Shown one piece after another: positions 839-55,933 of a DNA stretch of 64,000 nucleotides. Each line of letters starts with the position of its first letter. The first letter of the stretch is position 1. Under the pieces are notes generated by a model, which saw nothing but the letters and a program-made list of their open reading frames with translations, made no database searches and was not told the origin of the DNA. This DNA comes from Eledone cirrhosa. Its lineage: Eukaryota. The stretch spans positions 49,724,001-49,788,000 of the forward strand of contig OZ024752.1 of NCBI GenBank assembly GCA_964016885.1, in the 5' to 3' direction. The position numbers were made by a program, and so were the translations under genes.

Positions 839-909
839 TATATATATATATATATATATATTATTCAAAATAATAATAAATGAAGACATTCACATAATCA
901 AAATATATG

Positions 910-971
910 TTTTATTATATATATTTTGAAGGTACTGTGCTGTTTTTTCAGTACGTCCTCATCAGATAAAA
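910..971 (-). ncRNA. Degenerate type I hammerhead ribozyme motif (family B)
   Basis: Minus strand: TTTTAT-CTGATGA-GGACGTACTG..CAGTACCTTC-AAAA-TATATA-TA-ATAAAA. Stems I and II pair; the conserved GAAA reads AAAA. Confidence 0.5.
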
Positions 972-1123
972 TACATGAATTGATGTATGACATACCACAA
1001 CTGTCTTGATAGTTCAATTCCAGTATTGGCAGTCAATGTAGAGTGCTTTTAATCTATTGTAAAACTATATTCATTGAGTAATCAATGAACGATATTAATC
1101 TTTGGTTATATATATATATATAT

Positions 1124-1176
1124 GGGCTTCCTGATGATTTCTCCCAAATGAAACAGTTCTAGTCCTGTATAAGCCT
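1124..1176 (+). ncRNA. Type I hammerhead ribozyme motif (family A, copy 1)
   Basis: GGCTTC-CTGATGA-TTTCTCCCAAAT-GAA-ACAG-TTCTAGTC-CTGT-A-TAAGCC: conserved core, stem III, GUA site. One mismatch at the base of stem I. Confidence 0.7.
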
Positions 1177-1344
1177 TTCCTATATTAAATATATATACTC
1201 TGCTTTGTATTGAGTACCTTACTTACTGTGGTTACCTCCGATTGAACCTGGGATAAAGAAATATTAGTGGCATATGCTTTATAAAATGGCGGTGGTGTTA
1301 ATGGTATCGGAGGTGGTGGTAGGGGGGGGTAGTGATGGTGGTAG

Positions 1345-7282: not shown

Positions 7283-7496
7283 GTAATAATGATGATGATT
7301 ATGAAATGAAGATGTTTTGTTGTTGTTGTAGTTGTTTGTTTGTTTGGATGTTTTTGTTGTCCATTGTTTATTGTTGTTGTTATACCATTGTCGATTGTGT
7401 TGTGTTGTTTGTGTTGTTGTTGTTTTTAAGTACATAAAAATTAAAGTTACCTTCTGGGCTTTTAATTAATTGACAATAATCTGGGCCATGGAATCG

Positions 7497-8854
7497 AGAG
7501 GAGAGACAGGTGAGTGGTAGAGAGAGGAGAGACAGGTGAGTGGTAGAGAGAGGAGAGACAGGTAAGTGGTAGAGAGAGGAGAGACAGGTGAGTGGTAGAG
7601 AGAGGAGAGACAGGTGAGTGGTAGAGAGAGGAGAGACAGGTAAGTGGTAGAGAGAGGAGAGACAGGTGAGTGGTAGAGAGAGGAGAGACAGGTGAGTGGT
7701 AGAGAGCGGAGAGACAGGTAAGTGGTAGAGAGAGGAGAGACAGGTGAGTGGTAGAGAGAGGAGAGACAGGTGAGTGGTAGAGAGAGGAGAGACAGGTGAG
7801 TGGTAGAGAGCGGAGAGACAGGTGAGTGGTAGAGAGAGGAGAGACAGGTGAGTGGTAGAGAGAGGAGAGACAGGTAAGTGGTAGAGAGCGGAGAGACAGG
7901 TGAGTGGTAGAGAGAGGAGAGACAGGTGAGTGGTAGAGAGAGGAGAGACAGGTGAGTGGTAGAGAGAGGAGAGACAGGTGAGTGGTAGAGAGCGGAGAGA
8001 CAGGTGAGTGGTAGAGAGAGGAGAGACAGGTAAGTGGTAGAGAGAGGAGAGACAGGTGAGTGGTAGAGAGCGGAGAGACAGGTGAGTGGTAGAGAGAGGA
8101 GAGACAGGTGAGTGGTAGAGAGAGGAGAGACAGGTGAGTGGTAGAGAGCGGAGAGACAGGTAAGTGGTAGAGAGAGGAGAGACAGGTGAGTGGTAGAGAG
8201 AGGAGAGACAGGTGAGTGGTAGAGAGCGGAGAGACAGGTAAGTGGTAGAGAGAGGAGAGACAGGTGAGTGGTAGAGAGCGGAGAGACAGGTAAGTGGTAG
8301 AGAGAGGAGAGACAGGTAAGTGGTAGAGAGAGGAGAGACAGGTGAGTGGTAGAGAGAGGAGAGACAGGTGAGTGGTAGAGAGAGGAGAGACAGGTGAGTG
8401 GTAGAGAGAGGAGAGACAGGTAAGTGGTAGAGAGAGGAGAGACAGGTGAGTGGTAGAGAGAGGAGAGACAGGTGAGTGGTAGAGAGAGGAGAGACAGGTG
8501 AGTGGTAGAGAGCGGAGAGACAGGTAAGTGGTAGAGAGAGGAGAGACAGGTGAGTGGTAGAGAGCGGAGAGACAGGTAAGTGGTAGAGAGAGGAGAGACA
8601 GGTGAGTGGTAGAGAGAGGAGAGACAGGTGAGTGGTAGAGAGAGGAGAGACAGGTGAGTGGTAGAGAGCGGAGAGACAGGTAAGTGGTAGAGAGAGGAGA
8701 GACAGGTGAGTGGTAGAGAGCGGAGAGACAGGTAAGTGGTAGAGAGAGGAGAGACAGGTGAGTGGTAGAGAGAGGAGAGACAGGTAAGTGGTAGAGAGAG
8801 GAGAGACAGGTGAGTGGTAGAGAGCGGAGAGACAGGTGAGTGGTAGAGAGAGAG
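7497..8854. repeat. 26-bp minisatellite, 52 copies (GAGAGMGGAGAGACAGGTRAGTGGTA)
   Basis: ACAGG at 7506 and 7532 gives period 26. Only two positions vary. Confidence 0.95.
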
Positions 8855-10805: not shown

Positions 10806-11109
10806 ACACACAAAAGGTAATAATAAGGGTATTTCCAGCACTTGGTAGTATGCCTGATGACTAAATTGAGAAGCAAGGGCCATTGGATTGTTTATTGTAT
10901 TTGATTGTCAGAGTTGATTGTCAGAGTTGATTGTTGTTGTTGTTGTTGTCAGTGGTTTTGATTGTTGTTATGTTGAGAGTCAAAGTCATTGATTATAAAG
11001 TTACATTAGACTGCTGTTCTTTCTGGCAATTCTAGCAATGTCTTTTATTTCTTACCTCCATCATGGAAACCCTACAACAATTTTCTAAGAAGGATTATTA
11101 CCCCTTTTT

Positions 11110-11760
11110 TCATTACCATATTTCTAATGAAATATACTACCTATGTCTTTAACCCTTTCATTACCATATTTCTAATGAAATATACTACCTATGTCATTAA
11201 CTCTTTCATTACCATATTTCTAATGAAATATACTACCTATGTCATTAACTCTTTCATTACCATATTTCTAATGAAATATACTACCTATGTCGTTAACTCT
11301 TTCATTACCATATTTCTAATGAAATATACTACCTATGTCATTAACTCTTTCATTACCATATTTCTAATGAAATATACTACCTATGTCTTTAACCCTTTCA
11401 TTACCATATTTCTAATGAAATAAACTACCTATGTCGTTAACTCTTTCATTACCATATTTTTATTGAAATATACTACCTATGTCTTTAACCCTTTCATTAC
11501 CATATTTCTAATGAAATAAACTACCTATGTCGTTAACTCTTTCATTACCATATTTCTAATGAAATATACTACCTATGTCATTAACTCTTTCATTACCATA
11601 TTTCTAATGAAATATACTACCTATGTCATTAACTCTTTCATTACCATATTTCTAATGAAATACAATGCTTATGTCATTAACTCTTTCATTACCATATTTC
11701 TAATGAAATACAATGCTTATGTCATTAACTCTTTCATTACTATATTTCTAATGAAATATG
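11110..11760. repeat. 48-bp minisatellite, ~13 copies
   Basis: 16-aa periodicity in the ORF track (MKYTTYVINSFITIFL). The unit contains TTAACCCTTT/TTAACTCTTT. Confidence 0.95.
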
Positions 11761-11859
11761 TTTCATTTAACCCTTTTCCATTTACATTACTCTATATACA
11801 CTATTATATTTTAACAGTAAAGGCTTTACCTCACATAATATCGAATCTATGAAATTTGA

Positions 11860-12352
11860 CTGCGTCAGTTATTAACTGTCGAGACACTGCATCCTTTAAA
11901 ACCTCCATGGAACAAACTCCCTGCATCAGTTGTTAACTGTCGAGACACTGCATCCTTTAAAACCTCCATGCTTCCTGAGATCACCAAGACGACACCTAAT
12001 ATTCCCCCTCCATACACACGCACACATGTATATCATGACTCATACACTGTTCACTTCCCTGACATTTGTATATTATTCTATGTAGGCACGGTGGATTGGC
12101 AGTATCGGTAGAGGGTCGGACGCCATGCTTTGACGCATAGAGTTACGGCCCTTGCCATTCTGAGTTCAAATCCCACCGAGGTTAACTTTGCCTTTCATGC
12201 TTACGAGGTCGATAGAATAAAGTACCAGTAATGCACTGGGGTAATTGCTGGCCTTGTGCCAAAAGTAGAAACAATTATTCTATGTATTATACATGTACCT
12301 TTGATGAGTTGTAGTGCACCTGAGCACTGTACACAATGATTTCATTATTATC
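11860..12352 (+). mobile_element. CR1-like LINE 3' end interrupted by a SINE
   Basis: Homologous to 37975-38230, with a short internal duplication at the 5' end. Confidence 0.8.
12085..12273 (+). mobile_element. Full-length SINE family 1 with a 13-bp target-site duplication
   Basis: ATTATTCTATGTA at 12072-12084 and 12274-12286; tRNA-like A/B boxes. Confidence 0.9.
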
Positions 12353-24220: not shown

Positions 24221-24287
<67 letters not shown>

Positions 24288-24649
24288 TCCTGTGTAAAAT
24301 CGGGGATAACCGCAGTAAGTAAGGTACTCAATACATTTGTAGAGTGTAAATATCATGTCTAATATAGGAATATTAAGCCAAAATAATCCACCATCAATAT
24401 GGTATGGGGGAGAGGGGTTCTAACTACAGCCCTTCAATTATACCACGAAATGACTGGCACTAGTGGGAATTAAAATAAAAATTTACTAAATTCACTAAAA
24501 TTTTTCTAGCGAATTTTTTTGTTTGCTCAGTCAAGAAAATAACAGCCTTGACAGCCTGTACAGCAACTGACCAATGAGAGAGTTTCTAAATGGTCACATG
24601 ACATGCTAGAAATAGCATTTAAATCTCACTCCATTCCTACCATTACCAC

Positions 24650-27600
24650 GACAATGACCACCACCACATACACTGCATACATACCACTACCATCACCTCC
24701 ACCACCACCACATACCACTACCATCACCTCCTCCACCACCACATACACTGCATACATACCACTACCATCACCTCCTCCACCCCCACATACCACTACCATC
24801 ACCTCCTCCACCACCACATACACTGCATACATACCACTACCATCACCTCCTCCACCACCACATACCACTACCATCACCTCCTCCACCACCACATACACTG
24901 CATACATACCACTACCATCACCTCCACCACATACCACTACCATCACCTCCACCACCACCACATACCACTACCATCACCTCCACCACCACCACATACACTG
25001 CATACATACCACTACCATCACCACCAGCCCCACATACCACTACCATCACCTCCACCACCACATACCACTACCATCACCTCCACCACCACATACCACCACC
25101 ATCACCTCCTCCACCACCACATACCACTACCATCACCTCCTCCACCACATACCACTACCATCACCTCCACCACCACCACATACCACCACCATCACCTCCA
25201 CCACCCCCACATACCACTACCATCACCTCCTCCACCACATACCACTACCATCACCTCCACCACCACATACCACTACCATCACCTCCACCACCACATACCA
25301 CCACCATCACCTCCTCCACCACCACATACCACTACCATCACCTCCTCCACCACCACATACCACTACCATCACCTCCTCCACCACCACATACCACTACCAT
25401 CACCTCCTCCACCACATACCACTACCATCACCACCACCACCACATACCACTACCATCACCTCCTCCACCACCACATACCACTACCATCACCTCCTCCACC
25501 CCCACATACCACTACCATCACCTCCTCCACCACCACATACCACTACCATCACCTCCTCCACCACCACATACCACTACCATCACCTCCTCCACCACCACAT
25601 ACCACTACCACCACCATCACCTCCTCCACCACCACATACCACTACCATCACCTCCTCCACCACATACCACTACCATCACCTCCACCACCACATACCACTA
25701 CCATCACCTCCTCCACCACCACATACCACTACCATCACCTCACCACCACCACATACCACCACCATCACCTCCTCCACCACCACATACCACTACCATCACC
25801 TCCTCCACCACATACCACCACCATCACCTCCTCCACCACCACATACCACTACCATCACCTCCACCACCACATACCACCACCATCACCTCCTCCACCACCA
25901 CATACCACTACCATCACCTCCTCCACCACCACATACCACTACCATCACCTCCTCCACCACCACATACCACTACCATCACCTCCTCCACCACCACATACCA
26001 CTACCATCACCTCCACCACCACGATACCACTACCATCACCTCCACCACCACCACATACCACTACCATCACCTCCTCCACCACCACATACCACTACCATCA
26101 CTCCACCACCACACATACCACTACCATCACCTCCACCACCCCACATACCACTACCATCACCTCCTCCACCACCACATACCATCACCTCCCCACCACATAC
26201 CACTACATCACCTCCACCACCCCACATACCACTACCATCACCTCCACCACCCCCACATACCACTACCATCACCTCCACCACATACCACTACCATCACCTC
26301 CACCACCACATACCACTACCATCACCTCCACCACCACCACATACCACTACCATCACCTCCTCCACCACCACATACCATCACCTCCACCACCACATACCAC
26401 TACCATCACCTCCACCACCCCCACATACCACTACCATCACCTCCACCACCCCACATACCACTACCATCACCTCCACCACATACCACTACCATCACCTCCA
26501 CCACCACATACCACTACCATCACCTCCACCACCACCACATACCACTACCATCACCTCCACCACCCCCACATACCACTACCATCACCTCCTCCACCACCAC
26601 ATACCACTACCATCACCTCCACCACCACCACATACACTACCATCACCTCCTCCACCACCACATACCACTACCATCACCTCCTCCACCACCACATACCACT
26701 ACCATCACCTCCACCACCACCACATACCACTACCATCACCTCCTCCACCCCACATACCACTACCATCACCTCCTCCACACCACATACCACTACCATCACC
26801 TCCTCCACCACCACATACCACTACCATCACCTCCTCCACCACCACATACCACTACCATCACCTCCTCCACCACCACATACCACTACCATCACCTCCACCA
26901 CACCACATACCACTACCATCACCTCCTCCACCACCACATACCACTACCATCACCTCCTCCACCACCACATACCACTACCATCACCTCCTCCACACCACAT
27001 ACCACTACAATCACCTCCACCACCCCCACATACCACTACCATCACCTCCTCCACCACCACATACCACTACCATCACCTCCACCACCACCACATACCACTA
27101 CCATCACCTCCTCCACCACCACATACCACTACCATCACCTCCACCACCCCCACATACCACTACCATCACCTCCACCACATACCACTACCATCACCTCCTC
27201 CACCACCACATACCACTACCATCACTCCACCACCCCCACATACCACTACCATCACCTCCACCACCCCACATACCACTACCATCACCTCCACCACCCCCAC
27301 ATACCATTACCTCCACCACCCATACCACTACCATCACCACCACCACCACATACCACTACCATCACCTCCACACCCATACCACTACCATCACCACCACCAC
27401 CACATACCACTACCATCACCTCCACCACCCCCACATACCACTACCATCACCACCACCACCACATACCACTACCATCACCTCCACCACCCCCCACATACCA
27501 CTCCATCACCCACCACCACATACCACTACCATCACCTCCTCCACCACCACATACCACTACATCACCTCCACCCCCCACATACCACCTACCATCACCTCCA

Positions 27601-28640
27601 CCACCACATACCACTACCATCACCTCCTCCACCACCACATACCACTACCATCACCTCCTCCACCACCACATACCACTACCATCACCTCCTCCACCACCAC
27701 ATACCACTACCATCACCTCCACCACCACATACCACTACCACCACCTCCACCACCACATACCACTACCATCACCTCCACCACCACATACCACTACCATCAC
27801 CTCCTCCACCACCACATACCCTACCATCACCTCCTCCACCACCACATACCACTACCATCACAACTCCACCACCACATACCACTACCATCACCTCCACCAC
27901 CCCCACATACCACTACCATCACCTCCACCACCCCCACATACCACTACCATCACCTCCTCCACCCCCACATACCACTACCATCACCTCCACCACCCCCACA
28001 TACCACTACCATCACCTCCACCACCCCCACATACCACTACCATCACCTCCACCACCCCCACATACACTACCATCACCTCCACCACCCCCACATACCACTA
28101 CCATCACCTCCACCACCCCCACATACCACTACCATCACCTCCACCACCCCCACATACCACTACCATCACCTCCTCCACCACCACATACCACTACCATCAC
28201 CTCCACCACCACATACCACTACCATCACCTCCTCCACCACCACATACCACTACCATCACCTCCACCACCACATACCACTACCATCACCTCCTCCACCACC
28301 ACATACCACTACCATCACCTCCACCCCCACATACCACTACCACCACCTCCACCACCACATACCACTACCATCACCTCCACCACCACCACATACCACTACC
28401 ATCACCTCCACCACCCCCACATACCACTACCATCACCTCCTCCACCCCCACATACCACTACCATCACCTCCTCCACCACCACATACCACTACCACCACCT
28501 CCTCCACCACCACCACATACCACTACCACCACCTCCTCCACCACCACCACATACCACTACCACCACCTCCTCCACCACCACCACATACCACTACCACCAC
28601 CTCCTCCACCACCACCACATACCACTACCACCACCACCAC
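24650..28640. repeat. ~4-kb C/A-rich satellite with a ~25-31-bp variable unit (CATACCACTACCATCACCTCCTCCACCACCA)
   Basis: Direct inspection. It is almost G-free on the + strand, which explains the 1359-aa ORF. Confidence 0.95.
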
Positions 28641-28689
28641 TACCAACAACAACAACAACATAGAGTACCACAACAATATTAATAATAAT

Positions 28690-29020
28690 GATTTCCGCTT
28701 TAGGCACAAGGCCAGCAACTACCCCAGTACATAACTGGTACTTTATGTTACCGACCCCCGTAAGGATGAAAGGCAGAGTTAACCTCAGCGGGATTTGAAC
28801 TCAGACCGTAAAGGGAGGTAACTCTATGCTGCAAAGCATGGCATCCGACCTTTCTCTGATACTGCCAATCCACCACCAGTGGTGGGGGTTTCTAATTTGG
28901 GCAGAAGGTCAGCCATTTTGTTGGGGAGGTGGGCAGAGTTTACTAAATCAACCTTCGATTGATGAACCGCAAAGTTGATCTCAACAGGATTTGAACGTAG
29001 AGTGTAAAGAGCCAGAGCGA
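28690..29020 (-). mobile_element. Two adjacent SINE family 1 copies, the second older and more diverged
   Basis: Homology to 7100-7282. Confidence 0.75.
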
Positions 29021-29021
29021 C

Positions 29022-29022
29022 T

Positions 29023-29061
<39 letters not shown>

Positions 29062-29230
29062 GCAACAACAACAACAACAGCAGCAGCAGCAGCAACAACA
29101 ACACCAACAGCAGCAGCAGCAGCAACAACAGCAACAACAGCAGCAACAGCAGCAACAACAACAGCAGCAGCAACATCAGCATCAACAGCAGCAACAACAG
29201 CAGCAGCAACAGCAGCAGCAACAACAACAA

Positions 29231-29292
<62 letters not shown>

Positions 29293-29336
29293 ACAGCAAC
29301 AGCAGCAGCAGCAACAACAACAACAGCAGCAGCAGA

Positions 29337-29367
<31 letters not shown>

Positions 29368-29445
29368 ACAGCAGCAGCAACAACAACTGCAGCAACAGCA
29401 GCAACAACAACAACAACAACAGCAGCAGCAGCAACAGCAGCAACT

Positions 29446-29478
<33 letters not shown>

Positions 29479-29586
29479 ACAACAACAGCAACAACAACTG
29501 CAGCAACAGCAGCAGCAACAACAACAACAATAACAGCAGCAGCAACAGCAACAACAGCAGCAGCAACAACAACAGCAACAACAACT

Positions 29587-42984: not shown

Positions 42985-43168
42985 TACACAGACACACACA
43001 CATATATATGTACATATACACACATATATATATATACACATGCATACATATATATACATATATACACAGACATATACATATATATATATATACGTTATTC
43101 CGGGTTGAATCGGAGGTAACCACAGTAAGTAAGGTACTCAATACATAGCAGAGTATAAAAGTTTTAAT

Positions 43169-43217
43169 GATTCCTGATGATTTCTAATGAATGAAACAGT
43201 TCTAGTCCTGTAGAATC
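43169..43217 (+). ncRNA. Type I hammerhead ribozyme motif (family A, copy 2), inside element 43094-43232
   Basis: GATTC-CTGATGA-TTTCTAATGAAT-GAA-ACAG-TTCTAGTC-CTGT-A-GAATC. Confidence 0.75.
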
Positions 43218-43233
43218 TCATCTATATTAAAAC

Positions 43234-45065: not shown

Positions 45066-45869
45066 ATGGTTGCAAACTCTGCTAAGAGTATTGCAATCGC
45101 TTGTCAGGTTATAGAGTTTGGTGCACTTTTCGGCTACGGCCAGTCACACAAATCTGTAACAGACCCTGAACAAGCAATGCCTGTGCCTTGAAGGTGTTTT
45201 TAAGTGTGGGAAAGGCCTTGCACTCAACCAATCCCACTCTCTGAGCATCGCAAACACTACCCGAAAAGGAGAACTAGTCAACATCATCGGATGCTTCCGA
45301 AGCCAAGCGCAGGTTTTTTAAATTTTTTTTTATATATTTAAAGTATTAAAACCTTAAATCTATTTATTTAATTATAAATACGGAAAGTGCAGCGATAGAA
45401 GATAAATAAAACTTCAAAATAATCATAATATCCGACATTGTTTTGAGAATAATAGTGTAAAATTAATTATGACACCGGTTTAGGGATTTGATTTAACCCT
45501 TGACCTAACGCCGCCACGGTCATTTGATGTTCAGATTAAAAAGAATTGGGGAGTAAATTAATTGTTTTATTTATTTACTTATATGAAACAAGGAAGAAGA
45601 TGCCGGGACAGAAATTAAAAAATTTGCCGTCGTTAAAAAATTAAAATTCACCCATTACCCCTCCCATGATGCAACAGGGCAGGTAAATGATTTGACGATT
45701 TAGCGACATCAGTTCCTCAAATTTCACCGAGCCGAAATCTCAAGAACGATAACTCTGTCTTTACTTAATCGCAAAAATGGGTGCAAAAAAGTTTCAGTTG
45801 GGGACTTTTTTTTATTACGTATGATTTGTATGACAATTACTTAAAACACACCCACCCACTAACACATAT

Positions 45870-45953
<84 letters not shown>

Positions 45954-46070
45954 TATATATGTGTGTGTGTGTGTAAGAGAGCAGTGGCACTCCGTCGGTT
46001 GCGACGACAAGTATTTCTGTTTTTCCTACGAAATAAAAGTTGACACAATGTTTATAGTTGTTATTGTTGT

Positions 46071-46118
<48 letters not shown>

Positions 46119-46612
46119 CTGTTTCTACTTTAGGCACAAGGCCAGCAATTACCCAGTGCATTACTGGTACTTTATTTTATCGACCCCGTAAGGATGAAAG
46201 GCAAAGTCAACCTCGGCGTTATATATATATATATAACGGCGATGAATTAGTTTTGCGAGGTTTTTTATATGAAATCGTGTGTCGAAACAAATATTGTTAT
46301 ACTTGGGGAGGGTCATATTTGTGTAATATTGCCAGAATTAATAACAGAACACACTCACTGTTTGGTTGGTTTTCGCTTTTCGCTTCTATGTCTTTTATAT
46401 CGGTAATCTAATTTATTCGGTCCTCAATGTTGCCATTGACTGACCGGCGGTCAAAAATAATACAGATTCAATATAGACACAGTCAATGGCATTGAGGACC
46501 GAATAAATTAGATTACCGATATAAAAAACACAGAAGCGAAAAGCGAAAACCAACCAAACAATGAGTGTGTTCTGTTATTAATTCTGGCAATATTACACAA
46601 ATATGACCCTCC

Positions 46613-46649
<37 letters not shown>

Positions 46650-47231
46650 AAAATGTATGACCCCGACGGCAGAGCTCAAGCCGTTTCGACGGCTTCATAC
46701 ATTTTCCTATTACCCACTCTACTACCCTAAGTATTGAGTACTCTGGTGCGTTATGGTCCATCTGGTTCCTTACCACAACTCCTTCGTTATAAAATATTAT
46801 ATATTATTTATAATATAAATATTATATATAATATAAAATATTTTATATATATTATATATATATTATATATATTATATTATATATATTATATATTATATAT
46901 ATATATTATATATTAGATATATTAGATATTATAATTGAATTTTGCAAAGTTTTAAAACCAAACTGAAAATAAATTCCTATATATCTAAAACTATGTTTTC
47001 TTATATACAATAACAATAGACAGAACAACAACAACAACAACAACAACGATAACAATAACAACAATAAACATTGTGCTGTGAGTCAAATTTTATTTTTTTT
47101 GCATTTTTGTTTTTAAAATCCAAATTCAATAAACAGACCAGGATTTTTTCATTCTGAGGATTGAAAGCAAAATTTTTTGCTTTTAAGAAACCACTGGTAA
47201 ATGGAATAATTGTCTTATGTTGTTTATTACA

Positions 47232-47302
<71 letters not shown>

Positions 47303-47520
47303 GTAGATAAATCTACCAAAAGTTTACGGTAGTGTCCAATCCGTATGAAGAACTCAATGTAATCCAGATATCATGGAAAGAAAAGATGCATTCAAAAATC
47401 ACTTTCGGTGAAAGATAAACAGAATACAGAGTCAAGATAAAATATAAAAAAAATAATGAATAAAACAATTGATAAAATATTAAAAAAATAATGAATAAAA
47501 CAATTCATTATTTTTTTAAT

Positions 47521-47593
<73 letters not shown>

Positions 47594-48387
47594 GTGTGTG
47601 TGTGTGTTTTAAGTAATTGTCATACAAATCATACGTAATAATAAAATGTCCCCAACTGAAACTTTTTTGCACCCATTTTTGCGATTAAGTAAAGACGGAG
47701 TTATCGTTCTTGAGATTTCGGCTCGGTGAAATTTGAGGAACTGATGTCGCTAAATCGTCAAATCATTTACCTACCCTGTTGCATCATGGGAGGGGTAATG
47801 GATGAATTTTAATTTTTTAACGACCACAAATTTTTTAATTTCTTTCCCGGCATCTTCTTCCTTGTTTCATATAAGTAAATAAATAAACACAATTAATTTA
47901 CTCCCCAATTCTCTTTAATCTGAACATCAAATGACCGTGGAGGCGTCAGGTCAAGGGTTAAATCAAATCCCTAAACCGGTGTCATAATTAATTTTACACT
48001 ATTATTCTCAAAACAATGTCGGATATTATGATTATTTTGAAGTTTTATTTATCTTCTATCGCTGCACTTTCCGTATTTATAATTAAATAAATAGATTTAA
48101 GGTTTTAATACTTTAAATATAAAAAAAAAATAATAAAAACCTGCGCTTGGCTTCGGAAGCATCCGATGATGTTGACTAGTTCTCCTTTTCGGGTAGTGTT
48201 TGCGATGCTCAGAGAGTGGGATTGGTCGAGTGCAAGGACTTTCCCCACTTAAAAACACCTTCAAAGCACAGGCATTGCTTGTTCAGAGTCTGTTACAGTT
48301 TTGTGTGACTGGCCGTAGCCGAAAAGTGCACCAAACTCTATAACCTGACAAGCGATTGCAATACTCTTTAGCAGAGTTTGCAACCAT
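45066..48387. mobile_element. Foldback-like structure with ~780-bp inverted arms (45066-45851 and 47602-48387)
   Basis: ATGGTTGCAAACTCTGCTAA..GACAATTACTTAAAACACAC is mirrored by GTGTGTTTTAAGTAATTGTC..TTAGCAGAGTTTGCAACCAT, with scattered mismatches. Confidence 0.8.
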
Positions 48388-48736
48388 CATTTGATGTTCA
48401 GATTAAAGAGAATTGGGGGGTAAATTAATTGTTTTATTTATTTACTTATATGAAACAAGGAAGAAGATGCCGGGACAGAAATTAAAAAATATGCCGTCGT
48501 TAAAAAATTAAAATTCACCCATTACCCCTCCCATGATGCAACAGGGCAGGTAAATGATTTGACGATTTAGCGACATCAGTTCCTCAAATTTCACCGAGCC
48601 GAAATCTCAAGAACGATAACTCTGTCTTTACTTAATCGCAAAAATGGGTGCAAAAAAGTTTCAGTTGGGGACTTTTTTTTATTACGTATGATTTGTATGA
48701 CAATTACTTAAAACACACCCACCCACTAACACATAT

Positions 48737-48806
<70 letters not shown>

Positions 48807-48923
48807 TATATATGTGTGTGTGTGTGTAAGAGAGCAGTGGCACTCCGTCGGTTGCGACGACAAGTATTTCTGTTTTTCCTACGAAATAAAAGTTGACACA
48901 ATGTTTATAGTTGTTATTGTTGT

Positions 48924-48971
<48 letters not shown>

Positions 48972-49465
48972 CTGTTTCTACTTTAGGCACAAGGCCAGCA
49001 ATTACCCAGTGCATTACTGGTACTTTATTTTATCGACCCCGTAAGGATGAAAGGCAAAGTCAACCTCGGCGTTATATATATATATATAACGGCGATGAAT
49101 TAGTTTTGCGAGGTTTTTTATATGAAATCGTGTGTCGAAACAAATATTGTTATACTTGGGGAGGGTCATATTTGTGTAATATTGCCAGAATTAATAACAG
49201 AACACACTCACTGTTTGGTTGGTTTTCGCTTTTCGCTTCTATGTCTTTTATATCGGTAATCTAATTTATTCGGTCCTCAATGTTGCCATTGACTGACCGG
49301 CGGTCAAAAATAATACAGATTCAATATAGACACAGTCAATGGCATTGAGGACCGAATAAATTAGATTACCGATATAAAAAACACAGAAGCGAAAAGCGAA
49401 AACCAACCAAACAATGAGTGTGTTCTGTTATTAATTCTGGCAATATTACACAAATATGACCCTCC

Positions 49466-49502
<37 letters not shown>

Positions 49503-50084
49503 AAAATGTATGACCCCGACGGCAGAGCTCAAGCCGTTTCGACGGCTTCATACATTTTCCTATTACCCACTCTACTACCCTAAGTATTGAGTACTCTGGT
49601 GCGTTATGGTCCATCTGGTTCCTTACCACAACTCCTTCGTTATAAAATATTATATATTATTTATAATATAAATATTATATATAATATAAAATATTTTATA
49701 TATATTATATATATATTATATATATTATATTATATATATTATATATTATATATATATATTATATATTAGATATATTAGATATTATAATTGAATTTTGCAA
49801 AGTTTTAAAACCAAACTGAAAATAAATTCCTATATATCTAAAACTATGTTTTCTTATATACAATAACAATAGACAGAACAACAACAACAACAACAACAAC
49901 GATAACAATAACAACAATAAACATTGTGCTGTGAGTCAAATTTTATTTTTTTTGCATTTTTGTTTTTAAAATCCAAATTCAATAAACAGACCAGGATTTT
50001 TTCATTCTGAGGATTGAAAGCAAAATTTTTTGCTTTTAAGAAACCACTGGTAAATGGAATAATTGTCTTATGTTGTTTATTACA

Positions 50085-50161
<77 letters not shown>

Positions 50162-50379
50162 GTAGATAAATCTACCAAAAGTTTACGGTAGTGTCCAATC
50201 CGTATGAAGAACTCAATGTAATCCAGATATCATGGAAAGAAAAGATGCATTCAAAAATCACTTTCGGTGAAAGATAAACAGAATACAGAGTCAAGATAAA
50301 ATATAAAAAAAATAATGAATAAAACAATTGATAAAATATTAAAAAAATAATGAATAAAACAATTCATTATTTTTTTAAT

Positions 50380-50452
<73 letters not shown>

Positions 50453-51595
50453 GTGTGTGTGTGTGTTTTAAGTAATTGTCATACAAATCATACGTAATAA
50501 TAAAATGTCCCCAACTGAAACTTTTTTGCACCCATTTTTGCGATTAAGTAAAGACGGAGTTATCGTTCTTGAGATTTCGGCTCGGTGAAATTTGAGGAAC
50601 TGATGTCGCTAAATCGTCAAATCATTTACCTACCCTGTTGCATCATGGGAGGGGTAATGGATGAATTTTAATTTTTTAACGACCACAAATTTTTTAATTT
50701 CTTTCCCGGCATCTTCTTCCTTGTTTCATATAAGTAAATAAATAAACACAATTAATTTACTCCCCAATTCTCTTTAATCTGAACATCAAATGACCGTGGA
50801 GGCGTCAGGTCAAGGGTTAAATCAAATCCCTAAACCGGTGTCATAATTAATTTTACACTATTATTCTCAAAACAATGTCGGATATTATGATTATTTTGAA
50901 GTTTTATTTATCTTCTATCGCTGCACTTTCCGTATTTATAATTAAATAAATAGATTTAAGGTTTTAATACTTTAAATATAAAAAAAAAATAATAAAAACC
51001 TGCGCTTGGCTTCGGAAGCATCCGATGATGTTGACTAGTTCTCCTTTTCGGGTAGTGTTTGCGATGCTCAGAGAGTGGGATTGGTCGAGTGCAAGGACTT
51101 TCCCCACTTAAAAACACCTTCAAAGCACAGGCATTGCTTGTTCAGAGTCTGTTACAGTTTTGTGTGACTGGCCGTAGCCGAAAAGTGCACCAAACTCTAT
51201 AACCTGACAAGCGATTGCAATACTCTTTAGCAGAGTTTGCAACCATCATTTGATGTTCAGATTAAAGAGAATTGGGGGGTAAATTAATTGTTTTATTTAT
51301 TTACTTATATGAAACAAGGAAGAAGATGCCGGGACAGAAATTAAAAAATATGCCGTCGTTAAAAAATTAAAATTCACCCATTACCCCTCCCATGATGCAA
51401 CAGGGCAGGTAAATGATTTGACGATTTAGCGACATCAGTTCCTCAAATTTCACCGAGCCGAAATCTCAAGAACGATAACTCTGTCTTTACTTAATCGCAA
51501 AAATGGGTGCAAAAAAGTTTCAGTTGGGGACTTTTTTTTATTACGTATGATTTGTATGACAATTACTTAAAACACACCCACCCACTAACACATAT

Positions 51596-51665
<70 letters not shown>

Positions 51666-51782
51666 TATATATGTGTGTGTGTGTGTAAGAGAGCAGTGGC
51701 ACTCCGTCGGTTGCGACGACAAGTATTTCTGTTTTTCCTACGAAATAAAAGTTGACACAATGTTTATAGTTGTTATTGTTGT

Positions 51783-51830
<48 letters not shown>

Positions 51831-52324
51831 CTGTTTCTACTTTAGGCACAAGGCCAGCAATTACCCAGTGCATTACTGGTACTTTATTTTATCGACCCCG
51901 TAAGGATGAAAGGCAAAGTCAACCTCGGCGTTATATATATATATATAACGGCGATGAATTAGTTTTGCGAGGTTTTTTATATGAAATCGTGTGTCGAAAC
52001 AAATATTGTTATACTTGGGGAGGGTCATATTTGTGTAATATTGCCAGAATTAATAACAGAACACACTCACTGTTTGGTTGGTTTTCGCTTTTCGCTTCTA
52101 TGTCTTTTATATCGGTAATCTAATTTATTCGGTCCTCAATGTTGCCATTGACTGACCGGCGGTCAAAAATAATACAGATTCAATATAGACACAGTCAATG
52201 GCATTGAGGACCGAATAAATTAGATTACCGATATAAAAAACACAGAAGCGAAAAGCGAAAACCAACCAAACAATGAGTGTGTTCTGTTATTAATTCTGGC
52301 AATATTACACAAATATGACCCTCC

Positions 52325-52363
<39 letters not shown>

Positions 52364-52945
52364 AAAATGTATGACCCCGACGGCAGAGCTCAAGCCGTTT
52401 CGACGGCTTCATACATTTTCCTATTACCCACTCTACTACCCTAAGTATTGAGTACTCTGGTGCGTTATGGTCCATCTGGTTCCTTACCACAACTCCTTCG
52501 TTATAAAATATTATATATTATTTATAATATAAATATTATATATAATATAAAATATTTTATATATATTATATATATATTATATATATTATATTATATATAT
52601 TATATATTATATATATATATTATATATTAGATATATTAGATATTATAATTGAATTTTGCAAAGTTTTAAAACCAAACTGAAAATAAATTCCTATATATCT
52701 AAAACTATGTTTTCTTATATACAATAACAATAGACAGAACAACAACAACAACAACAACAACGATAACAATAACAACAATAAACATTGTGCTGTGAGTCAA
52801 ATTTTATTTTTTTTGCATTTTTGTTTTTAAAATCCAAATTCAATAAACAGACCAGGATTTTTTCATTCTGAGGATTGAAAGCAAAATTTTTTGCTTTTAA
52901 GAAACCACTGGTAAATGGAATAATTGTCTTATGTTGTTTATTACA

Positions 52946-53024
<79 letters not shown>

Positions 53025-53242
53025 GTAGATAAATCTACCAAAAGTTTACGGTAGTGTCCAATCCGTATGAAGAACTCAATGTAATCCAGATATCATGGAA
53101 AGAAAAGATGCATTCAAAAATCACTTTCGGTGAAAGATAAACAGAATACAGAGTCAAGATAAAATATAAAAAAAATAATGAATAAAACAATTGATAAAAT
53201 ATTAAAAAAATAATGAATAAAACAATTCATTATTTTTTTAAT

Positions 53243-53317
<75 letters not shown>

Positions 53318-54110
53318 GTGTGTGTGTGTGTTTTAAGTAATTGTCATACAAATCATACGTAATAATAAAATGTCCCCAACTGAAACTTTTTTGCACCCAT
53401 TTTTGCGATTAAGTAAAGACGGAGTTATCGTTCTTGAGATTTCGGCTCGGTGAAATTTGAGGAACTGATGTCGCTAAATCGTCAAATCATTTACCTACCC
53501 TGTTGCATCATGGGAGGGGTAATGGATGAATTTTAATTTTTTAACGACCACAAATTTTTTAATTTCTTTCCCGGCATCTTCTTCCTTGTTTCATATAAGT
53601 AAATAAATAAACACAATTAATTTACTCCCCAATTCTCTTTAATCTGAACATCAAATGACCGTGGAGGCGTCAGGTCAAGGGTTAAATCAAATCCCTAAAC
53701 CGGTGTCATAATTAATTTTACACTATTATTCTCAAAACAATGTCGGATATTATGATTATTTTGAAGTTTTATTTATCTTCTATCGCTGCACTTTCCGTAT
53801 TTATAATTAAATAAATAGATTTAAGGTTTTAATACTTTAAATATAAAAAAAAAATAATAAAAACCTGCGCTTGGCTTCGGAAGCATCCGATGATGTTGAC
53901 TAGTTCTCCTTTTCGGGTAGTGTTTGCGATGCTCAGAGAGTGGGATTGGTCGAGTGCAAGGACTTTCCCCACTTAAAAACACCTTCAAAGCACAGGCATT
54001 GCTTGTTCAGAGTCTGTTACAGTTTTGTGTGACTGGCCGTAGCCGAAAAGTGCACCAAACTCTATAACCTGACAAGCGATTGCAATACTCTTTAGCAGAG
54101 TTTGCAACCA
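45520..54110. repeat. Tandem triplication of a ~2.86-kb unit (45520-48386, 48387-51245, 51246-54110)
   Basis: Identical ORF-track peptides at 46058, 48911 and 51770. Units differ mainly in (TA)n length. Confidence 0.95.
46305..46614. repeat. Inner inverted repeat with ~135-bp arms and a 37-bp spacer (also in units 2 and 3)
   Basis: GGGGAGGGTCATATTTG..CCATTGACTG / CAGTCAATGG..CAAATATGACCCTCCCC. Confidence 0.9.
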
Positions 54111-55446: not shown

Positions 55447-55566
55447 TATTATAATGAAATGACAGGAGGCTGGATTTGTGTAAATCCTTGAAAGGTTTAT
55501 ACTATGATCATAGTATAATAAACCTTTCAAGGATTTACACAAATCCAGCTCCTGTCATTTCATTAT

Positions 55567-55570
<4 letters not shown>
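55447..55570. repeat. Near-perfect loopless 124-bp palindrome centred on TGATCA
   Basis: The arms differ only by a 1-nt and a 3-nt indel. Confidence 0.9.
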
Positions 55571-55603
<33 letters not shown>

Positions 55604-55672
55604 TTATTCCGGGTTCAATCGGGGGTAACCACAGTAAGTAAGGTACTCAATACATTGCAGAGTATAAATGTT

Positions 55673-55747
55673 TTAATATTGAAAAGCTTCCTGATGATTT
55701 CTCACGAATGAAACAGTTCTAGTCCTGTAGAAGCCTTTCTATATTAA
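55673..55747 (+). ncRNA. Type I hammerhead ribozyme motif (family A, copy 3) with extended stem I, inside element 55603-55750
   Basis: TTAATATTGAAAAGCTTC-CTGATGA-TTTCTCACGAAT-GAA-ACAG-TTCTAGTC-CTGT-A-GAAGCCTTTCTATATTAA. Confidence 0.78.
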
Positions 55748-55933
55748 TATATATATATATATATATATAATAAATACAATATCGGAGAAAGCTTTTTAGC
55801 GATACTCCGGCCAAATTCCAACTCACTCAACAAACATTAGGAAATAAAGTGATTATATTCCCAATTATGTGTTCGGGGTGCTAACTAAAAGTATTGCGTG
55901 GAAAATTGGCTGTATTATTTCAAATGAGACATA

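Follow-up and report, generated by a model that had tools for sequence, protein, structure and literature searches.

Hammerhead-bearing copies in the window

In the 64-kb window, that is, the whole stretch of DNA analysed here, three hammerhead-like cores of the form CTGATGA...GAAA start at positions 1131, 43174 and 55691 of the plus strand (copies 1, 2 and 3, respectively). All of them have the same stem III (ACAG/CTGT) and a GUA site, with predicted cuts after 1169, 43212 and 55729, and all have U-U at 10.1-11.1 and (TA)n flanks, while loop II reads TCCC in the copy at 1131, TAAT at 43174 and TCAC at 55691. These features had been described in an earlier note on this DNA, and each was found again in the letters of the window.

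In the focal unit (copy 3, 55601-55747), a sense arm is joined head-to-head with an inverted arm that bears the tail. For this family, signed positions are counted from the predicted cut. The inverted arm (55601..55690, minus strand) covers the element between end A of the 3' tail (approximately +92) and the 3' strand of stem I, and its last 6 nt are common to the sense arm (55685..55747, plus strand), which begins at the predicted transcription start (-45), includes the hammerhead and stops at a second end at +18 (end B). The type I hammerhead itself occupies 55685..55735 (plus strand): stem I pairs 55685-55690 with 55730-55735 (5 pairs in this copy), stem II consists of the U-U and 3 pairs below the loop TCAC, and stem III has 4 pairs and an 8-nt loop containing a 4-nt palindrome. 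The inversion created the long hairpin seen around 55673-55747; in native copies, stem I is 6 bp.

Copy 2 is composed of an inverted tail-bearing arm (43091..43168, minus strand) and a sense arm (43169..43230, plus strand) from -44 to end B, and belongs to a subfamily in which pair 4 of stem I is A-U and loop II is TAAT. Copy 1 (1124..1256, plus strand) is a solo copy in native order, with two G, the 5' strand of stem I, a damaged hammerhead (T replaces G1.1, and stem II has a C-A mismatch), the end B region and the tail. The earlier note had regarded the repeat as one unit of ~140 bp with a leader of ~75 nt. The unit is really two truncated ends joined head-to-head at variable junctions, and the 'leader' is not upstream sequence: it is the 3' tail of the element, inverted in the copies at 43094 and 55603, and located downstream of the hammerhead on the opposite strand in copy 1 (1194-1256). 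The proposed leader-only copy does exist, as a tail-only fragment (24286..24372, minus strand, limits approximate; BLAST match 24298-24351) that resembles the tail of a third subfamily. Retrozyme-type head-to-tail non-coding monomers were not found among the window copies, which are solo or head-to-head.

Several other repeats are present in the window. A unit of ~2.85 kb occurs in three copies at ~45500-53600, each with a long perfect hairpin (46343-46577, 49196-49430 and 52055-52289) that scored below the cut-off against a miRNA model; this unit is probably another fold-back insertion. Directly left of the focal copy is a near-perfect hairpin of ~115 nt (55455-55570), possibly another head-to-head stub. 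Tandem arrays are located at 7359-8700, 10964-11887 and 24700-29500, with periods of 26, 48, 28-31 and 9 nt.

Abundance and structure of the hammerhead motif

We searched the genome (3.0 Gb, 1,796 contigs) for the core plus stem III, leaving the stem II region free. At least 20,486 exact matches were obtained compared with zero for the reversed control, and therefore the core motif is not a product of chance. A 29-nt piece of the 'leader' had 12,703 exact matches in the whole genome, and its reversed control had none.

C3-A9, G12-A14, A15.1-U16.1, the NUH triplet and three stems are all present, and the core is canonical throughout. The stems are constant and loop II differs between subfamilies. 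The compensatory C-G to A-U change in stem I, which had been proposed from the window copies, was confirmed in 63 long native copies (35 C-G, 23 A-U and 5 unpaired); pair 4 is the covarying pair, and pair 7 is unpaired in 60 of the 63. In a hand-picked alignment of 18 sequences, double-sided changes occur at two pairs of stem I; stems II and III are constant, with no compensatory change in either. The stem I covariation amounts to one or two inherited events that are counted many times.

Among 144 genomic copies, 141 have U at 10.1 and 143 have U at 11.1, a departure from the purine-pyrimidine pair rule for the opening of stem II. Such a closure had been considered unusual, but it is the majority state among the published Hydra-clade hammerheads, occurring in 14 of 25 families as counted from File S2 of PMC8557442. 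Natural hammerheads with U10.1-U11.1 have also been described, and U-U was reported there as the best-tolerated mismatch (Perreault et al., 2011, PMC3088659).

The comparison with Rfam, suggested in the earlier note as a check, did not recover the motif: no hammerhead match was obtained in 55600-55750 at E values up to 10, and no Rfam hammerhead was present among the 150 listed of the 274 whole-window matches or in loci of two other families. Folding z-scores were unremarkable (0.42 to -0.94). Our ribozyme call relies on core residues, pairing pattern and comparison with the published Hydra table, and not on a model match. Isolated stem III had a folding energy of -1.7 kcal/mol alone and -13.4 as a dimer, and the prediction suggests cleavage of a dimer via stem III. 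It is likely that the hammerhead is a weak or assisted ribozyme kept by selection, with most templates left uncut.

Parent element

This repeat represents the pseudo-LTR end, with the hammerhead inside it, of a Penelope-like retroelement (PLE) of the Hydra clade; we designate the element family Y. In native order, the hammerhead is followed by end B (+18), the 74-nt tail, end A (+92) and an ATG at ~+137. The pseudo-LTR, hammerhead, tail and ATG are continuous in 5 of 14 longer regions (L163, L165, L166, L167 and L168), in which the pseudo-LTR with its hammerhead lies in partial tandem ahead of the ORF. Family Y loci were picked by the endonuclease end of this ORF (L061), and 17 of the 29 contained the repeat, compared with 1 of 29 loci of a control family (family X; p 7e-6). 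The linkage to RT/GIY-YIG ORFs that had been proposed as a check was thereby observed. One of the two identities offered at the time, Penelope pseudo-LTR remnants, proved correct, with Hydra as the clade. The other, an independent non-coding family processed by its ribozyme, finds no support, given the head-to-head truncated ends, the variable junctions and the lack of an excess of ends at the predicted cut.

The family Y ORF encodes RT followed by a C-terminal GIY-YIG endonuclease (EN), with DKT in place of DKG, a CxCX5C linker, and CxxC and CxH at the EN C terminus (translations of L131 and L123); the N-terminal motif is RWR where the Hydra clade has RWK. The Pfam match to GIY-YIG is weak (E 0.005, below the curated cut-off), and the Pfam RT family did not match the family Y protein. 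The clade was assigned by these motifs and by comparison by eye with the Hydra alignment of PMC8557442, which the protein resembles. A protein search revealed 13 relatives at 34-51% identity; 12 of them are unnamed, and one comes from a metagenome assembly under the label of a bacterial hypothetical protein and is likely to be animal contamination. No intact full-length ORF was seen in 30 loci (the longest open stretch is 393 aa), and the 64-kb window contains no family Y ORF. This family is one more Hydra-clade PLE, ordinary as a family though abundant.

Genomic copies have (TA)n flanks, as read by eye and uncounted. Between the ORF and the promoter region of family Y there is a (TA/TG)n microsatellite of ~1 kb (L107, L125 and L169), and therefore the element includes a target of the type that it inserts into; other insertions interrupt many copies at this microsatellite. 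Relative to the ORF, the GTAAGT of the 'leader', which resembles a splice donor, is on the antisense strand. A pseudo-LTR array of 12 units, retrozyme-like in appearance, is located behind an ORF copy at G000:C1:83679300-83692500 (L336 and L337), and a strand imbalance of the matches (3,826 versus 1,648) hints at a larger array elsewhere.

The family X ORF (L071) was first found upstream of a copy and was rejected as the parent: it is a nested neighbour that carries a separate hammerhead-like motif, and its loci contain the repeat only in the single case given above. In this motif C replaces U4 and the stem II loop is ~85 nt (L071:6190-6310; also L079, L083, L088, L097-L099 and L101). Family X ORF stretches without a stop reach 727 aa.

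Ends of the copies

The end survey included 89 distinct tail-bearing loci, namely the first 90 matches listed of the 29-mer search, from which the duplicate L251 was dropped; the sample covers the first 41 Mb of one contig and, with an exact 29-mer required, favours young copies. The 5' ends halt at a sharp wall 44-46 nt ahead of the predicted cut: 37 are at -35 to -46 and 5 at -6 to +6, and the remainder are distributed at -7 to -34 (16), after +7 (12), at -47 to -159 (3) and at or beyond -160 (16). The stopping rate is 7.2% per nt at the wall, compared with 0.5% at the cut and 0.16% beyond the wall. No excess of copy ends was found at the predicted cut in these 89 tail-bearing copies.

At the other side, the 3' ends of copies are fixed at two points separated by 74 nt. 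Partner arms were sought within 330 nt, and 6 of the 55 calls were dropped as spurious; partner 3' ends and one set of junction calls are distorted by microsatellite in the references. Among the 89 loci, the tail is present in none of the 55 partner arms, and 40 of the 49 credible ones end at -35 to -48. Two-tailed exceptions (L016 and L029) come from a biased set. The head-to-head junctions differ from copy to copy, and many of them share 1-8 nt of microhomology. The tail-bearing arm of the focal copy ends at the predicted cut and thus belongs to a minority class that is not in excess; its junction coincides with the 6-nt microhomology in stem I. Of the 34 solo copies, no more than 4 stop within the wall zone, a point against a wall set by the RNA start; solo copies that stop at the wall include L196, L224, L256, window copy 1 and the pseudo-LTR ahead of the L168 ORF.

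Predicted promoter and a control family

As a general rule, transcription starts approximately 30 nt after a TATA box. We examined 63 long copies, which were chosen for having TATA and CCAAT. In 55 of them the distance from the start of the TATA box to C3 is 35-37 nt, though the spacer differs between subfamilies, and TATA+30 falls on a pyrimidine-purine step, on the base that opens stem I. A G precedes this putative +1 in 11 of 17 wall junctions compared with 6 of 41 shorter ones (p 3e-4), or in 7 of 11 when six doubtful rows are dropped (p 3e-3). The extra G would fit copying of a cap, with the partner-arm sequence and a native GG in one subfamily as confounding factors.

Because the wall of the main family coincides with stem I, we took another family (family Z) as a control. 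A family Z stub adjoins copy 1 (860-1110 of the window), with a hammerhead-like core at 946-965 on the minus strand, and its sense arm (860..1033, minus strand, 3' limit approximate) starts at its own predicted transcription start (1033). A 28-mer of this family has 869 exact genome matches. Family Z is also Hydra-type, with RT or endonuclease sequence directly upstream in 2 of 30 loci (34-40% identity to family Y). Its TATA box is at -30 from a TCA(+1) initiator in six of seven long copies and at -29 in the other, and the core is at +68. Within 3 nt of the initiator A end 13 of 35 arms, and the stopping rate per base is 12.5% at the initiator, 0.6% near the ribozyme edge and 0.3% beyond; a G precedes only 3 of 8 ends at +1. 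Since the family Z wall sits at TATA+30, 68 nt ahead of the ribozyme core, the wall tracks the predicted start and not the ribozyme. It is likely that stub ends pile up at the start of the element RNA.

TATA and initiator motifs in a pseudo-LTR have been noted earlier (PMC3846280). A start site inside the pseudo-LTR is known for two PLEs. The promoter of D. virilis Penelope is internal and TATA-less (PMC2377424), which counts against the promoter predicted here.

Proposed origin of the short copies and alternatives

Considering the observed linkage, ends and one-sided tail, we think it quite probable that the short copies are run-off cDNAs of uncut RNA and represent its first 63 and 137 bases, with a Hydra-clade pseudo-LTR as the source. 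For the promoter, the cap, the nicking and the joining, we infer the following scheme. A TATA/initiator promoter in the pseudo-LTR would start transcription at the first base of stem I (-45). The element protein would nick (TA)n on both strands, and reverse transcription would start internally at two sites that bracket the tail. On an RNA with its only pseudo-LTR/ORF junction at the 5' end, both cDNAs would run off at the cap; with an RNA start at -45 they would be 63 and 137 nt long, which are the two arms seen, and they would then be joined head-to-head by microhomology in (TA)n. For long copies to arise, read-through RNA from a tandem would be required. In vitro, a PLE protein was reported to cut both strands of AT-rich DNA and to start reverse transcription at two internal sites bracketing the tail, and uncut RNA was the dominant substrate for this protein (PAc; PMC11167929).

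A different possibility for the same element is that structure in the RNA or cDNA determines the wall, the stem I strands allowing nascent cDNA to fold back or to switch template. The wall does lie on the 5' strand of stem I, microhomology is common at the junctions, the focal copy is joined through a 6-nt stem I match, and junction palindromes have been read as self-priming on an antisense template (PMC3846280). However, the position of the family Z wall, 68 nt ahead of its core and at TATA+30, and the solo copies that stop at the wall both speak against this explanation, which we consider unlikely. It is far less probable that the short units represent an independent non-autonomous family, SINE- or retrozyme-like, which is excised by its ribozyme and mobilised in trans. 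Their very high copy number would suit such a family, as would the head-to-tail array, in which 12 hammerhead units of ~1.07 kb occur without an ORF, and retrozymes have been proposed to derive from PLE pseudo-LTRs (10.64898/2026.07.22.740005). On the other hand, this array follows an ORF 85% identical to the family Y protein, junctions vary from copy to copy, ends are not in excess at the cut, the TATA and CCAAT region is absent from the short copies, and every loop II subfamily examined also has long, promoter-bearing copies.

A further alternative concerns catalysis only and is compatible with the run-off explanation: the motif may be catalytically dead, a remnant retained only as a structure that binds a protein or positions the RT. 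The failure to match Rfam, the lack of a folding signal, the weak stem II of 3 pairs and the absence of an end excess at the cut are all expected from such a remnant, but the core is canonical at all positions, the stems are fixed while loop II differs between subfamilies, stem I covaries, and U-U is the mismatch reported to be tolerated best (PMC3088659). We regard a dead motif as rather doubtful.

Somewhat more cautiously than for family Y itself, we expect that the majority of tiny Penelope 'end fragments' represent complete run-off cDNAs, which extend from two internal RT starts to the start of a capped, uncut RNA. If this is true, genomes hold a map of PLE promoters, and the need of PLEs for a tandem to make full-length copies would be explained. 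In family Y, whose RNA would start with the first stem I base, cleavage would remove a 45-nt capped piece and so serve as an off-switch or for decapping, and not for release of the template.

Comparison with known systems

The element type, its layout, the one-sided tail and the U-U variant have already been published. Family Y resembles the Hydra clade as described by Craig et al. (2021, PMC8557442) in its single ORF with RT followed by GIY-YIG and in the DKT, CxCX5C, CxxC and CxH motifs, as well as in (TA)n targets, a pseudo-LTR hammerhead with the U-U closure typical of that clade, partial tandems and inverted 5'-truncated copies. In contrast to that description, it has RWR and not RWK, its tail is 74 nt and not 30-40, and loop III is 8 nt compared with 0-3 nt in the Hydra hammerheads listed there. 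The unit is also longer than the usual <3 kb (one spacing is 5,364 nt) because of the long internal microsatellite in the 3' region. The hammerhead differs from that of Hydra-1_Obim, and therefore family Y is a different family.

PAc, a Poseidon element of Anolis carolinensis (Frangieh et al., 2024, PMC11167929), is similar in that two fixed 3' ends bracket an optional tail, the hammerhead is near the pseudo-LTR/ORF junction, targets are AT-rich and insertions apparently come from uncut RNA. PAc belongs to a different clade, and both of its ends are inside the ORF, whereas they precede the ATG here. With PLE hammerheads and metazoan non-LTR retrozymes (PMC4209133; 10.64898/2026.07.22.740005), our motif shares the type I fold, a palindromic loop III, many solo motifs and nearby opposite-strand pairs; unlike those, it has a full 4-bp stem III and no G10.1-C11.1, and its short copies are non-tandem. 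The natural U10.1-U11.1 hammerheads of PMC3088659 likewise have a weak stem II that opens with a U-U mismatch, but they were described without a link to PLEs, and the present motif is a predicted ribozyme.

In the literature searched, mostly outside subscription journals, we found no paper that ties short PLE copies to a transcription start. The value of the present analysis is mechanistic, concerning the role of the PLE hammerhead and the origin of head-to-head stubs: the comparison of two families separates stopping at the RNA start from stopping at the ribozyme, and names the exact bases.
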